Source: Chryseobacterium sp. 39-10 | Lineage (GTDB): Bacteria > Bacteroidota > Bacteroidia > Flavobacteriales > Weeksellaceae | Direction: 5' to 3' | DNA: 64,000 bases | Assembly (NCBI GenBank): GCA_001898255.1 | Contig: MKTK01000010.1 | Span: forward strand, 95,896-159,895 | Shown here: positions 47,890-51,820 of the stretch, piece by piece | Layout of the letters: every line of letters begins with the position of its first letter | How positions within the stretch are numbered: position 1 is the stretch's first letter | Program-made: the position numbers and the translations under genes | Notes under the pieces: generated by a model | The model's input: only the letters and a program-made list of their open reading frames with translations | Told to the model about the DNA's origin: nothing | The model's database searches: none

Positions 47890-48179
47890 TTATGAATGTA
47901 TTGAGGTTAATATAATTTCTTTAACAATAATAAAAAGACCCATTACAAGTACAATGTACCCAAATATGGGCTTCAGTCTGCGGATGTCGATCTTTTTGGA
48001 AACCGACAATCCTATAAAAATTCCGATCATCGACAAGAATGCGATGGCGCCGTGGCAGTAACCGCTTCAAAGCCGAAAGTATACGCAAATACCGGCACCC
48101 CCAATATGCTGCCTCCTCCGCCAATAAGCTCCATGAAAAAACCAATGATAATTGCCGAAAAGTATCCCAGTGTCTCCAT
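47890..48179 (-). pseudogene. Internally deleted TauE/SafE sulfite exporter
   Basis: N-terminus METLGYFSAIIIGFFMELIGGGGSILGVPVFAYTFGFEAVTAT is joined out of frame to C-terminus GAIAFLSMIGIFIGLSVSKKIDIRRLKPIFGYIVLVMGLFIIVKEII...; junction near 48050. Confidence 0.85.
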
Positions 48180-48315: not shown

Positions 48316-50304
48316 TTAAAAATTAACATTAATATTCAGATAAAAATTACGCCCGGGGCGAGGAATTTTATTCCAGTCCGAATAGGTGGTATACAACTTA
48401 TCGAAAATGTTTTCCACTCCAATTTTGGTTAACAACTTCATTCCATTAAAACCAAACTGATAACCTATATTGGCATTAAAAACCGCAAAAGCAGACGTTT
48501 CCGATTCGCCATATTCAGCAGCAAAATCATTATATTTTGAATTTCCCATCGCAGAAACCTCGGCCGACAATTTGTTCCTGTGAAACAACAGCGACGAACG
48601 GTAACTGAACGGACTCATGAACGGAAGATTCTTTTTTTCAAAATCTTTTCCACGAGCGTACTTCAATTGGTTCGTCCATTCCAGAAACTGCAATAATTTA
48701 ACCTTCGTCGTTAAGCTCGCATCAAAAATAGTAGCAAAATCAAGTGCTTCGTACTGTTTCACACCATGAGCACCAATAGTCATAGGTACCAAACCACCGA
48801 GCACCTTCCCAACGATATAATCGCTGATATGGAAATAACTCGCCGATAAATCAGCCGAAAATCCTTCGCTTTTTAACCCCGCAAAAGCATTCAGCTCAAT
48901 AGATGATTCATTCTTAAGATGAGGATTACCTATATAATCGTACTTCTCAAAACTATTAAACAAATAAAAGCCATAACCTTCCGACACCGAAGGTGCACGA
49001 TCGCTAAAACCACCTCCAAAACCGAATGTTAACTGTTTGCCTTCGAACCTATATTTTGCGGCAACACTCTTCAGTAAACGATTTTTCTGCGCCGCCATTT
49101 CCGGATAAAAAATCTGCAAACTATTTAAGCCAAAATCGCTTTCTACTTTGTTGGAATGGAACCCTAACGAACCTGACAGCTGCAGCGAAGATTTTGAACT
49201 CAGCAAAAAATGATCTTCCAAATAAACACCCTGAAAAAGGGTGCGCACTTGCGGCCAGGTGTACATAAACATCAGCTTTTCTGCAGAATTAGCCGGATAC
49301 ATCGTCATCTCCGCCGTGGAGAGATTTGAAAAGCCATTCAAGTTGAACTTAAAATGATGATCGGGCAATTCAGCTGTGAGTTGTGAATAATACCCGTATG
49401 TTTTGCTCCAGCCAGGCATATCCATGTGAATAGGCACTGATGGTCGCTGGGTATCGTCCATTCTGTGGGTAATATTGTTGTAATAAATTTTGGTTTCCCA
49501 GCCCGTTAAATAATCAGAAACAGGAACAAGGCGATATTTCAACGATCCTATGAATGCTTCTGCAAGAGAGACATCCATAGGTAAAGCGGGGTAGCCCACG
49601 TTGGTCGCTTTATCGTAAATTAACGAAGTTTCTACCCATTGATTGCTGCCCAATTTCAAACCAGCGTTTCCTGAAAGATTAATCTTTTTATACTGAGAAA
49701 ACGGCACTTCGGTATGGTTGCCTGCAAAATAATTTTCCGCAGAACGCGACATGCCACTTACATCAGCATAGAAAACAGGAGATTTATACGCGGCAGACCC
49801 ACCATAAATTTTCTGCTGATTAACGCTTTCAAAACCACTGTTGAGTGCAAAATCCCATTTTTGGGGGCCAAATTCACCCAATTTTCTTCTCAAGTTAATG
49901 GCTCCACCGATGGTATTTCCATGCTCACTTCCCTGTGCACCTGAAACAATTTCCGCCTCAGATAAATTTGATACTTCCACATAAGAAGTCACAGGATCCA
50001 TTTTGTCTGTACACGCGCCAAAAATCCTCATCCCGTCAATGGTGACGACGGTTCGTTCCGTTGGCATGTTATTCAGCAGTGGTTCCCATGCGTAAGAGCC
50101 ACGCTTAATCATCTCTATTTTTGAAGATTTTTGAAGGTACTCATCAATCGAGCTTAGCGGTTTCGATTCTTTTGCGGAAACGGCATGCCCGCCGATCACC
50201 ACCACCTCCTGAATATTATGGACATTCAGGGAATCAGCGTCGATTTGTTGCGCGAAAGCTCCCACGGAGATGATGCTGCACATCAATACGAATTTCTTTC
50301 TCAT
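48316..50304 (-). CDS. TonB-dependent receptor, OprC/NosA-like (copper)
   Basis: Plug CTDKM (CxxxM), barrel HRM (HxM) and HMDM, terminal GRNFYLNINVNF. Confidence 0.85.
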   Translation of the reverse strand: MRKKFVLMCSIISVGAFAQQIDADSLNVHNIQEVVVIGGHAVSAKESKPLSSIDEYLQKSSKIEMIKRGSYAWEPLLNNMPTERTVVTIDGMRIFGACTDKMDPVTSYVEVSNLSEAEIVSGAQGSEHGNTIGGAINLRRKLGEFGPQKWDFALNSGFESVNQQKIYGGSAAYKSPVFYADVSGMSRSAENYFAGNHTEVPFSQYKKINLSGNAGLKLGSNQWVETSLIYDKATNVGYPALPMDVSLAEAFIGSLKYRLVPVSDYLTGWETKIYYNNITHRMDDTQRPSVPIHMDMPGWSKTYGYYSQLTAELPDHHFKFNLNGFSNLSTAEMTMYPANSAEKLMFMYTWPQVRTLFQGVYLEDHFLLSSKSSLQLSGSLGFHSNKVESDFGLNSLQIFYPEMAAQKNRLLKSVAAKYRFEGKQLTFGFGGGFSDRAPSVSEGYGFYLFNSFEKYDYIGNPHLKNESSIELNAFAGLKSEGFSADLSASYFHISDYIVGKVLGGLVPMTIGAHGVKQYEALDFATIFDASLTTKVKLLQFLEWTNQLKYARGKDFEKKNLPFMSPFSYRSSLLFHRNKLSAEVSAMGNSKYNDFAAEYGESETSAFAVFNANIGYQFGFNGMKLLTKIGVENIFDKLYTTYSDWNKIPRPGRNFYLNINVNF

Positions 50305-50373
50305 GAGGTTTGATGATAAATGATTTAAGTTGACTGAATTTTGTTTTTTCAAAACAATTTCCATTGAACAAGA

Positions 50374-51228
50374 TTAAAATTCAAGCTCAAAGAAAATACT
50401 CGATGCCGGATTATCGGTGGTCACCGGTTCGCCTTTCAGTAAACTACCGCTGGCATTCAGCAACTGAAGATTGATTTTCCAATAACCCGTCATGGTTAAG
50501 GATAGTTTACCGGTGTACAATTTACCGGGTGCAGCTTGCTTAGCATCAATATTATTTGGTGAACTGTGGTTTCCCATTCCCGGCATTCTGGGATCGATTT
50601 TAACGGTGAAACCATCTACAACAGAAAATGTATTCATGTCTTCCGTTTTCCAAACGCCCACTTTTAAATCATTCACCGCCACGGCAGGGGATTGCGGCTC
50701 CACATACGCCATTACATACCTCACATTATCGGATCCTAAGAAAGAGGTCACTCGTCTTTTCGCTGATTCTGGAACATCAATCGCAGTAGTTGCTGAAAAC
50801 GAGGTTCCGTTGATTGTATAATTGATCTGCAAATCCCAATATTCGGAGTTATTCTGTGCCATTTGAAAAACCAGATAGCCGGAGTAAAGCGTACCGTCGG
50901 GTTGATCTTTGGTAATTGCAGATTTTGGACAAGAATGCGACATGGACATCATGTGCATCAAAGGGTTCCAACTCAAGGTTGCATTCTTTTCATATTGCCC
51001 GGTAGCTGTATTCTTAATCCGTATTTTCAAGTCGTTGTACCCTAATTGTGTTGTGCCGGAAACTGAATACAGTTCTAGGGTATGGGTACTGTTGGAGAAT
51101 TCTTTAATTTTTTTAAGACCATCGAGCTCGTTGGTGACTGGAGCGACAGCATCGTCTGATGTTCTGCAGGAATGCAGGAGTAAAGCCATTGCAAAAAATG
51201 CAATGATTACAGGAATTGAAAATTTCAT
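50374..51228 (-). CDS. YtkA/FixH-like Met/His-rich lipoprotein
   Basis: Lipobox LHSC, PLMHMMSMSHSCP, MPGMGNHSS and MTGYWKI motifs. Confidence 0.8.
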   Translation of the reverse strand: MKFSIPVIIAFFAMALLLHSCRTSDDAVAPVTNELDGLKKIKEFSNSTHTLELYSVSGTTQLGYNDLKIRIKNTATGQYEKNATLSWNPLMHMMSMSHSCPKSAITKDQPDGTLYSGYLVFQMAQNNSEYWDLQINYTINGTSFSATTAIDVPESAKRRVTSFLGSDNVRYVMAYVEPQSPAVAVNDLKVGVWKTEDMNTFSVVDGFTVKIDPRMPGMGNHSSPNNIDAKQAAPGKLYTGKLSLTMTGYWKINLQLLNASGSLLKGEPVTTDNPASSIFFELEF

Positions 51229-51320
51229 TTTTTTTAATTTTAAATCAAAGGGATGAGATTCCGAAAGAATGCATTCGAAATACTTTTTTTGTGCACTATG
51301 CACGCGTAAAAAACTGAAAT

Positions 51321-51683
51321 TTATCCCTGTGGCGGATCCGGAAGCACGTCTGCGAAACCAGCGGAAGTTTCATGAATCATTGTGAAGAAAAGAGGTTGAT
51401 CGCTTAAAACAAATACCGTCGCACCATCTTTTACTTCCCAGGTTGTATGCGGCAGCATATTAAAATCAAAACTATACTTCTGCAGCTTAAATGGTGAATT
51501 GCTTTTTTCGCTTTCCTTCTTCATGCCACATTTTCCGTGGCAATTCATTTCCGGTTTCGATTTATTCACGCAATGCAATTCATAATAAGCCGTGTTGATC
51601 TTGTAGTCGACCAACAGCAGCGTATTCTGGAAACTCGCCATGAATATAATTGCCGATAAAAGGGTAAGAAAAAAACTTTTCAT
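51321..51683 (-). CDS. Cys-motif exported small protein / putative leader ORF
   Basis: Hydrophobic N-terminus, HCVNKSKPEMNCHGKC, terminal PDPPQG; TAAATTTG promoter at 51693-51700. Confidence 0.8.
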   Translation of the reverse strand: MKSFFLTLLSAIIFMASFQNTLLLVDYKINTAYYELHCVNKSKPEMNCHGKCGMKKESEKSNSPFKLQKYSFDFNMLPHTTWEVKDGATVFVLSDQPLFFTMIHETSAGFADVLPDPPQG

Positions 51684-51820
51684 TGAACGTATCAAATTTA
51701 AGACTTTTTTATCCTAATTAAAAATGATTTTAATCACCATAAGAAAAGCAAAATTTTATTCAAATATACAGCAATCCTCCAATATTTTTTATCTTTATCG
51801 TTTGAAACAAACAGCGAACA

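Follow-up and report, generated by a model that had tools for sequence, protein, structure and literature searches.

The question raised by this locus is whether a small open reading frame (ORF) ahead of putative copper genes encodes a protein that works in the cell envelope or a leader peptide whose own translation reports on copper. The ORF lies in a stretch of 64,000 nt from Chryseobacterium sp. 39-10 (GCA_001898255.1, contig MKTK01000010.1, positions 95,896 to 159,895 of the forward strand), which we call the window and whose internal numbering is used below. An earlier note, made from the DNA letters alone, had proposed that the ORF is a copper-sensing leader of a Bacteroidota-specific type. 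Our evidence for the leader reading, which is computational throughout, favors this proposal: with a probability of roughly 60%, the ORF acts in cis as a stalling leader that senses copper and controls access to a start region without a Shine-Dalgarno sequence.

The leader ORF occupies positions 51321-51683 on the minus strand, with its ATG at 51683 and its TAA at 51321-51323, and comprises 120 codons plus the stop. Its 120-aa product, MKSFFLTLLSAIIFMASFQNTLLLVDYKINTAYYELHCVNKSKPEMNCHGKCGMKKESEKSNSPFKLQKYSFDFNMLPHTTWEVKDGATVFVLSDQPLFFTMIHETSAGFADVLPDPPQG, begins with MKSFF and ends with VLPDPPQG. An in-frame TTG lies upstream of the ATG, at 51695; the homologues start with MK, as does the product of the ATG start. 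A family-profile search found one copy of the gene in this genome. Residues 1-24 (51612-51683, minus strand) are hydrophobic and are predicted, from the sequence and from an AlphaFold helix at residues 2-17 (pLDDT >85), to form an export segment. A clear AxA-type cleavage site was absent on inspection by eye, and the N termini of the family keep their hydrophobic character together with an (S/T)F motif; read by eye, the leader N terminus is probably an uncleaved signal anchor. A presumed periplasmic metal site follows, the Cys cluster H37-C38-x9-C48-H-G-K-C52 (HCVNKSKPEMNCHGKC, residues 37-52; 51528-51575, minus strand). The linker (residues 53-114; 51342-51527, minus strand) opens with a charged stretch and continues as a segment that is variable in sequence and fixed in length, resembling a ruler. 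It ends at P115-D-P117-P118 (CCG GAT CCG CCA; 51330-51341, minus strand), a presumed ribosome-stalling motif that is followed only by Gln, Gly, and the TAA. AlphaFold2, run with the family alignment, modeled confident helices in residues 1-60 (pLDDT 86-95) and left residues 61-120 without secondary structure (pLDDT 58-76). A Foldseek search of this model against the PDB returned 0 matches. The export signal, the C-x9-C-x3-C cluster, and the PDPPQG end described by the earlier note are thus all present on the minus strand.

Scans against Pfam and NCBIfam gave no match for the window protein or for any of 133 aligned relatives. NCBIfam "HYC_CC_PP" and DUF6660, two families that might have been expected to match, did not do so either. 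Searching 1.8 billion cluster representatives with phmmer identified 905 family proteins at E <= 1e-3, nearly all of 110-140 aa. Among 401 sampled Bacteroidota genomes, 136 gave a match to the family profile, with one to three copies per genome and representing 71 of 180 genera; in the taxonomic family to which the window belongs, the proportion was 81 of 201 genomes. All matches with a named source come from Bacteroidota (Chryseobacterium, Kaistella, Ferruginibacter, Flavisolibacter, and Chitinophagaceae), and every one is annotated as "hypothetical." Judged by sequence comparison, the leader gene belongs to a large, uncurated family restricted to Bacteroidota, in agreement with the type suggested by the earlier note.

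The conserved parts of the family are the two ends of this architecture. Seven columns are invariant in the 133 aligned sequences: C38, N40, C48, G50, C52, P117, and P118. The Cys motif and a PP located 1-8 residues before the stop occur together in 251 of 273 distinct family sequences, and the rest are mostly truncated fragments; among arbitrary ORFs of 60-170 codons in this genome, only 76 of 3899 carry a PP in that position. These numbers indicate that the terminal PP and the Cys pattern are more than chance, and they bear out the conservation of the terminal PP that the earlier note had proposed to check. Two to four residues follow the PP in 88% of the family sequences. The residues preceding it are mostly F-H, or P-[H/D/K] in the window's clade, giving the consensus [F/P/L]-[H/R/x]-P-P. 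The last Cys and the first Pro are 59-70 residues apart, with a mode of 64, and 78% of the 251 sequences fall within 62-66. Information per column amounts to 2.6 bits in residues 25-52 and 2.4 bits in residues 113-118, compared with 0.72 bits in the 50-residue linker stretch (residues 63-112). Identity among leader orthologues of the same genus is only 41-63%. A linker that is free in sequence and fixed in length, set between a sensor and a stop-proximal Pro-Pro, is the signature reported for the DUF2946 leaders, to which CruR and CutF belong.

We then compared gene neighborhoods across Bacteroidota, sampling 40 diverse loci and three close relatives in addition to the window. This gave 46 leader copies, for which the downstream proteins were clustered and representatives annotated. 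A TonB receptor, often with a PepSY_TM or BNR-like protein behind it, directly follows the leader in 13 of the 46 loci, and a YtkA-like lipoprotein followed by the receptor, the arrangement of the window, in eight. MbnP and then the di-heme peroxidase MbnH, often trailed by a Phenol_MetA_deg-type outer-membrane barrel, account for 11 loci; such a barrel comes first in six. The remainder have YHS, SCO1, and superoxide dismutase in this order (three loci), a 146-aa protein and then the receptor (one locus), or other or unclear genes (four loci). TonB receptors or other copper genes thus lie directly after the leader in 42 of 46 loci, which upholds the position before TonB receptors listed by the earlier note as a check. 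The spacers between leader and next gene mostly measure 30-150 nt. A position just upstream of copper genes is the rule, and the head of the operon is the usual place, although not a universal one. Among four loci, we also observed tandem modules in the same direction: leader-YtkA-TonB receptor, a gap of 5 nt, and leader-MbnP-MbnH, or leader-YHS-SCO1-superoxide dismutase, a gap of 3-4 nt, and leader-MbnP-MbnH-outer-membrane barrel. In these tandem loci, every copper submodule has its own leader. An apparently conserved upstream partner gene of ~430 aa was rejected as an artifact of the 1500-nt locus flanks.

In the window, the first gene after the leader, with its ATG at 51228, encodes a Met/His-rich YtkA-like lipoprotein of 284 aa (50374-51228, minus strand; PF13115 at E = 3.7e-5, just under the cut-off) and is presumed to be the first regulated gene of the operon in the model proposed below. 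Nine nucleotides after it starts the gene for an OprC-like TonB-dependent copper receptor of 682 aa (48316-50364, minus strand). The best NCBIfam model for the receptor was TIGR01778 (9e-29, below cut-off), its best PDB match was Pseudomonas OprC (6FOK), and the alignment keeps the OprC copper ligands (CPNRM versus CTDKM and HIM versus HRM, i.e. CxxxM and HxM). Because the upstream neighbor, a HerA-like gene from 51821, is divergent, the leader is the first gene of the transcription unit here. By these similarities, the operon is plausibly a copper operon, and the description of the leader as its first ORF holds.

The spacer between the leader stop and the lipoprotein ATG is exactly 92 nt long (51229-51320, minus strand), as the earlier note had stated. 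That note had also pointed to small hairpins in the spacer, and both exist on the minus strand: GTGCA-TAG-TGCAC at 51291-51303 and a hairpin at 51258-51281 that encloses the GAATGCATTC palindrome at 51267-51276. Neither is conserved among the relatives, the coding strand has no intrinsic terminator, and we therefore rejected them as the functional element. A U-run at 51308-51313 can pair with an A-run at 51229-51236, just before the lipoprotein start codon.

The conserved RNA element is instead a long-range helix between the stop region of the leader and the start region of the next gene, which covaries in the Weeksellaceae relatives. In the window this helix, P1, has as its 5' arm the last nucleotide of Pro118, the codons of Gln119 and Gly120 (CAG GGA), the UAA, and 8 nt more (51315-51330, minus strand). 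Its 3' arm consists of the UG of the start codon and the first six lipoprotein codons, with a 3-nt bulge (51209-51227, minus strand). P1 pairs with a probability of 0.9-1.0 in the partition function and is present in the minimum free energy and centroid structures, and the 141-nt region holding it folds better than shuffled sequences (z = -2.3). When a ribosome was modeled with Pro117 in the P site and the covered nucleotides blocked, 11 of the 16 P1 pairs were lost, and the unpaired probability of positions +1 to +20 rose from 0.20 to 0.71.

The relatives have the same arrangement of stop region and start region with different sequences. Across 28 Weeksellaceae loci, cognate stop/start duplexes averaged -9.95 kcal/mol compared with -6.02 kcal/mol for non-cognate ones (permutation p < 1e-4), and the cognate partner ranked in the top 10% for 20 of the 28. 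Within each leader, the stop window also outperformed ~116 alternative windows (mean z = -1.9, p = 1e-5). An alignment of the spacers of 16 species was too divergent for a column-wise analysis, so a subset of seven species was used. For a 12-pair helix in this alignment, 92.7% of the cells were paired and four pairs had changed on both sides, including within the last sense codon (GUG/CAC to AUA/UAU); none of 500 shuffles did as well, and slid controls reached 17-43% paired cells. In the relatives, the 3' arm ends 2-17 nt before the next start codon or overlaps it.

By analogy with characterized leaders, we infer that the leader is exported, binds copper, stalls its ribosome, and acts in cis, and we infer its polarity from its cargo. 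The nascent chain would engage the Sec translocon through its N-terminal hydrophobic segment. With the ribosome at Pro117-Pro118, ~64 residues would separate the peptidyl-transferase center from the Cys cluster. This length would roughly match the exit tunnel plus the translocon, so that C38, C48, and C52 would just have emerged into the periplasm; by our own estimate, ~30-35 of the 64 residues lie in the tunnel and the remainder in the translocon. Copper occupancy of the cluster could then alter the dwell time of the ribosome on Pro-Pro. A ribosome paused there would cover the last codons and the stop, which form the 5' arm of P1 and face the lipoprotein start codon and the codons just after it. 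A long pause would leave the start region open, and quick termination would let the helix re-form and shut it. Since Bacteroidia ribosomes do not use Shine-Dalgarno pairing (PMC9976891), the helix would hide the start codon and the A-rich sequence around it. Given that copper uptake is the task of the downstream genes, we favor, at lower confidence, the polarity of CruR, in which stalling and expression would occur without copper, and release and shut-off with copper.

Several points weigh against this reading. The leader lies at most 30 nt behind another gene in 8 of the 46 loci and thus does not always head an operon. In the thermodynamic model, the AUG is still paired when a ribosome sits on PP. 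Over 38 diverse loci, the stop/start signal was weaker and heterogeneous (mean z = -0.7, with about one-third clearly positive); for these loci the first ATG served as the downstream start, an assumption that makes the RNA test less sharp beyond the window's clade. Owing to this heterogeneity outside Weeksellaceae, a stop/start helix universal to the whole family is not supported. The genome encodes elongation factor P (EF-P), which normally relieves PP pauses. With EF-P encoded, a bare PP would normally be read through; either the sequence context or a pulling force must play a part, as they do for CruR and CutF. The window motif, L-P-D-P-P, is neither the F-H-P-P most common in the family nor RAPP, and its action as a stalling motif on Bacteroidota ribosomes is putative. 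Termination at the leader stop opens the helix with or without a stall, so that it could serve plain translational coupling. Finally, residues 1-60 look in the model like a folded, conserved domain, as would be expected of a stable protein too.

Some of these points suit an alternative in which the product is a stable, membrane-anchored periplasmic copper-binding accessory protein, either a chaperone or an uptake partner, whose C-terminal xPP contributes to structure or to interactions, with the helix providing only translational coupling. Residues 1-60 are conserved with a modeled pLDDT >90, coupling would need no stall, EF-P is at hand, and the gene always stands beside copper-handling genes. 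We nevertheless consider such a protein unlikely. Neither a tether nor a folded domain would be expected to hold 50 residues almost free of sequence constraint and yet fixed in length, and the invariant PP lies 2-4 residues from the stop in 88% of the sequences. With at least five kinds of downstream gene, a general regulator is a better fit than a dedicated partner, Foldseek found no structural relative, and the architecture mirrors that of proteins demonstrated to be leaders.

The stop/start helix also bears on a second alternative, in which a stalling leader acts here through transcription attenuation, by Rho or at an intrinsic terminator, rather than by occluding a start region. CruR acts through Rho, and the window's clade conserves a spacer of 75-140 nt. 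Of 67 family spacers, 11 hold hairpins that resemble terminators, a stem with a T-run behind it, compared with 1.7 in shuffles; this hints at subfamilies in which transcription is attenuated, either in place of the gating of translation or in addition to it. The RNA output may thus vary among subfamilies, just as CruR works by Rho termination and CutF by unmasking of a ribosome-binding site. For the window itself, we judge attenuation to be quite improbable. The minus (coding) strand of its spacer has no terminator-like site, and the strongest, covarying structure links the stop region to the start region; Rho sites were not predictable in this AT-rich genome by the methods used here.

That the three Cys sense a signal other than copper, such as zinc, another thiophilic metal, the periplasmic redox state, or Sec translocation load, appears very improbable: with a neighboring His or Asn they could bind Zn or form a periplasmic disulfide, CutF-like clusters of other metal specificities are reported (PMC9973294), and SecM-type leaders sense export itself, but the downstream genes are nearly all copper-linked (an OprC-type receptor with copper ligands, MbnP/MbnH, SCO1, YHS, and YtkA-like proteins).

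Around the leader, two TAnnTTTG boxes, candidate -7 promoter elements of Bacteroidota, lie upstream at 51761-51768 and 51693-51700 (minus strand); the spacer between leader and lipoprotein has no perfect box. As the motif turns up roughly every 1.3 kb, these boxes are weak evidence for a promoter. The nearer box ends 9 nt before the leader ATG and, if used, would give a nearly leaderless mRNA. At the other end of the operon, a remnant of a TauE/SafE-type gene (47908-48179, minus strand) lies between the copper receptor and the gene of a 124-aa lipoprotein. Only residues 1-46 and 220-262 of the 263-aa protein of the relatives are recognizable in it, so that an internal deletion has taken place. 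A 147-aa gene that follows the receptor in the relatives is missing from the window.

Outside the window, the same genome carries two further PP-ended ORFs. One, on contig C17 (12983-13309, plus strand), encodes a Cys-rich, N-terminally hydrophobic protein of 108 aa with the sequence ...CSPFCYCSCC...NIWNPPKFNV. It matches DUF6660 (7e-14) and precedes the genes of a 1437-aa CzcA-like resistance-nodulation-division pump fused to an outer-membrane factor and of a His-rich membrane-fusion protein. DUF6660 may comprise leaders that work by the same logic and control metal efflux. The other, on contig C41 (8957-9334, plus strand), encodes another small protein of this kind, with 125 aa and many CC and CxxC motifs, ends in NIWQPPKIA, and has no Pfam or NCBIfam match. 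It stands 69 nt upstream of the gene of an 888-aa TonB receptor with two N-terminal heavy-metal-associated (GNCGMCK) domains.

A broader claim can be put forward tentatively, at somewhat less than even odds: that such leaders form a phylum-wide, independently evolved class of Bacteroidota nascent-chain copper sensors, in which a three-Cys periplasmic site, set by a 64-residue ruler at exactly the combined length of tunnel and translocon from a Pro-Pro arrest, would expose or hide start regions of copper-uptake genes that lack Shine-Dalgarno sequences. In this genome, the class would stand beside two or more sister leader families. It would then be the first regulated translational switch of its kind to be described in organisms whose ribosomes ignore Shine-Dalgarno sequences.

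The copper that Bacteroidota take up through their outer membrane supplies cbb3 oxidases and N2O reductase, in bacteria that are very abundant in soil, in the sea, and in association with hosts. If the leader reading is true, hundreds of genes annotated as encoding hypothetical proteins would be named as a regulator, and their sequences would serve as a marker for copper-uptake loci (OprC-like receptors, MbnP/MbnH, and SCO1/YHS modules). Nascent-chain sensing would then have evolved at least twice to one design, comprising an export signal, a Cys site, a ruler, Pro-Pro, and a short tail, and the family would offer a tractable case of translational switching in a phylum without Shine-Dalgarno-based initiation. 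The sister families, DUF6660 and the unnamed one, would point to a family-level toolkit of metal-sensing leaders within one genome, and rulers of 64 and 45 residues would give a direct handle on ribosome-translocon geometry.

A literature search found no paper on this Bacteroidota family, the three-Cys motif, the 64-residue spacing, or a start-region helix without a Shine-Dalgarno sequence. The closest parallels are the DUF2946 leaders, as the earlier note had proposed: the architecture, the neighbor set, and the ruler-like linker are shared. CruR (Bp2923) of Bordetella pertussis, a member of DUF2946 (PF11162), stalls at RAPP three residues before its stop (PMC9426467; arrest, PMC12992588). 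The 45-residue spacing between its CxxC and RAPP is conserved and functionally required, as a change of five residues impairs regulation, and its output is Rho termination (PMC9426467). Like the present leader, CruR is a small exported protein that heads a copper-uptake operon with a TonB receptor, carries a Cys metal motif and a Pro-Pro 2-4 residues before the stop, and has a linker that is constant in length and variable in sequence, followed by a sizeable intergenic spacer. The genes beside cruR homologues encode OprC-type TonB-dependent transporters, PepSY_TM, MbnPH, and Sco proteins (PMC9426467), the same set that surrounds the leader family. The differences lie in the Cys motif (C-x9-C-x3-C versus CxxC), the arrest motif (x-[H/R/D]-P-P versus R-A-P-P), the spacing from Cys to PP (mode 64, range 59-70, versus 45), and the predicted output, which would be occlusion of the start region rather than Rho termination. 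The divergent Cys spacing noted earlier is therefore genuine.

Our family is confined to Bacteroidota, whereas the listed CruR homologues come from Proteobacteria and a few from other phyla, none of them Bacteroidota (PMC9426467). The DUF2946 Pfam model matched neither the window protein at E <= 0.1 nor any of the 133 family members at E <= 0.01. An hhalign comparison of the family with five DUF2946-like sequences from Bacteroidota gave a probability of 2.7% and aligned only the hydrophobic N termini. By these profile comparisons, the leader family appears to be an analogue of DUF2946, or a relative diverged beyond detection, and not a member. Of 201 Bacteroidota genomes, only two contained a match to the DUF2946 model above its cut-off. 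These matches, along with some borderline ones, are genuine DUF2946-like leaders, with CxxC, a 45-residue spacing, and R[A/G]PP plus 3-4 residues; they come from lineages outside Flavobacteriia, were noted at three loci, and coexist with the present family in four genomes.

The RAPP/RGPP arrest peptides ApdA and ApdP and their "RQH family," together with SecM, monitor Sec/YidC activity without a Cys sensor (PMC10951233, PMC10987492, PMC12992588). RAPP-like peptides share with the leader a C-terminal X-X-P-P near the stop in a small exported or membrane protein encoded upstream of the regulated gene, and in some of their motifs His can replace Arg. The motif [R/Q/H]-[A/G]-P-[P/G] does not cover the P-D-P-P of the window or the mostly F-H-P-P ends of the family, which have no Ala or Gly between the basic residue and PP. 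When a basic residue is present in the leader family, it directly precedes PP; the window has Asp there. DUF6660 (PF20365), also from Bacteroidota, consists of small, N-terminally hydrophobic, Cys-rich proteins that end in W-x-P-P-K plus 2-3 residues and are encoded ahead of metal genes, but with another Cys pattern (CSPFCYCSCC) and efflux cargo. Its model matched none of the 133 leader-family members and scored the true DUF6660 gene of this genome, described above, at 7e-14.

A rule-based survey by Ozturk et al. in 2023 collected 5,334 "CutF-like" proteins (list D, 29 clusters), 19% of them from Bacteroidota, which were neither described nor tested (PMC9973294). Its rules were a length below 150 aa, PP within the last 15 residues, a signal peptide (SignalP), and a same-strand neighbor (PMC9973294). 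The window ORF, with 120 aa, PP at residues 117-118, and a same-strand gene after 92 nt (<1 kb), falls within the size, PP, and neighbor limits.

CutF itself, from Rhodobacter capsulatus, uses a CxxxC and a proline motif to melt a stem that hides the ribosome-binding site of the next gene (bioRxiv 10.1101/2025.02.05.636593). The C48-x3-C52 part of the leader cluster fits the CxxxC form, and the leader shares with CutF an export signal, the C-terminal proline motif, and the proposed melting by a stalled ribosome of an mRNA helix over the initiation site of the next gene. It differs in an invariant third Cys 9 residues upstream of the CxxxC, in having no CxxC, in a signal that is probably an uncleaved anchor, and in lying outside DUF2946. 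CutF controls a detoxifying oxidase and copper prolongs its stall, whereas the genes downstream of the leader are uptake genes, for which the opposite polarity would be expected. The hidden element would be a start codon with its A-rich tract here and is a Shine-Dalgarno sequence for CutF. Of the new mechanism anticipated by the earlier note, the start site without a Shine-Dalgarno sequence stands, and the scheme as a whole is best seen as an adaptation of the logic of CutF rather than as wholly new.

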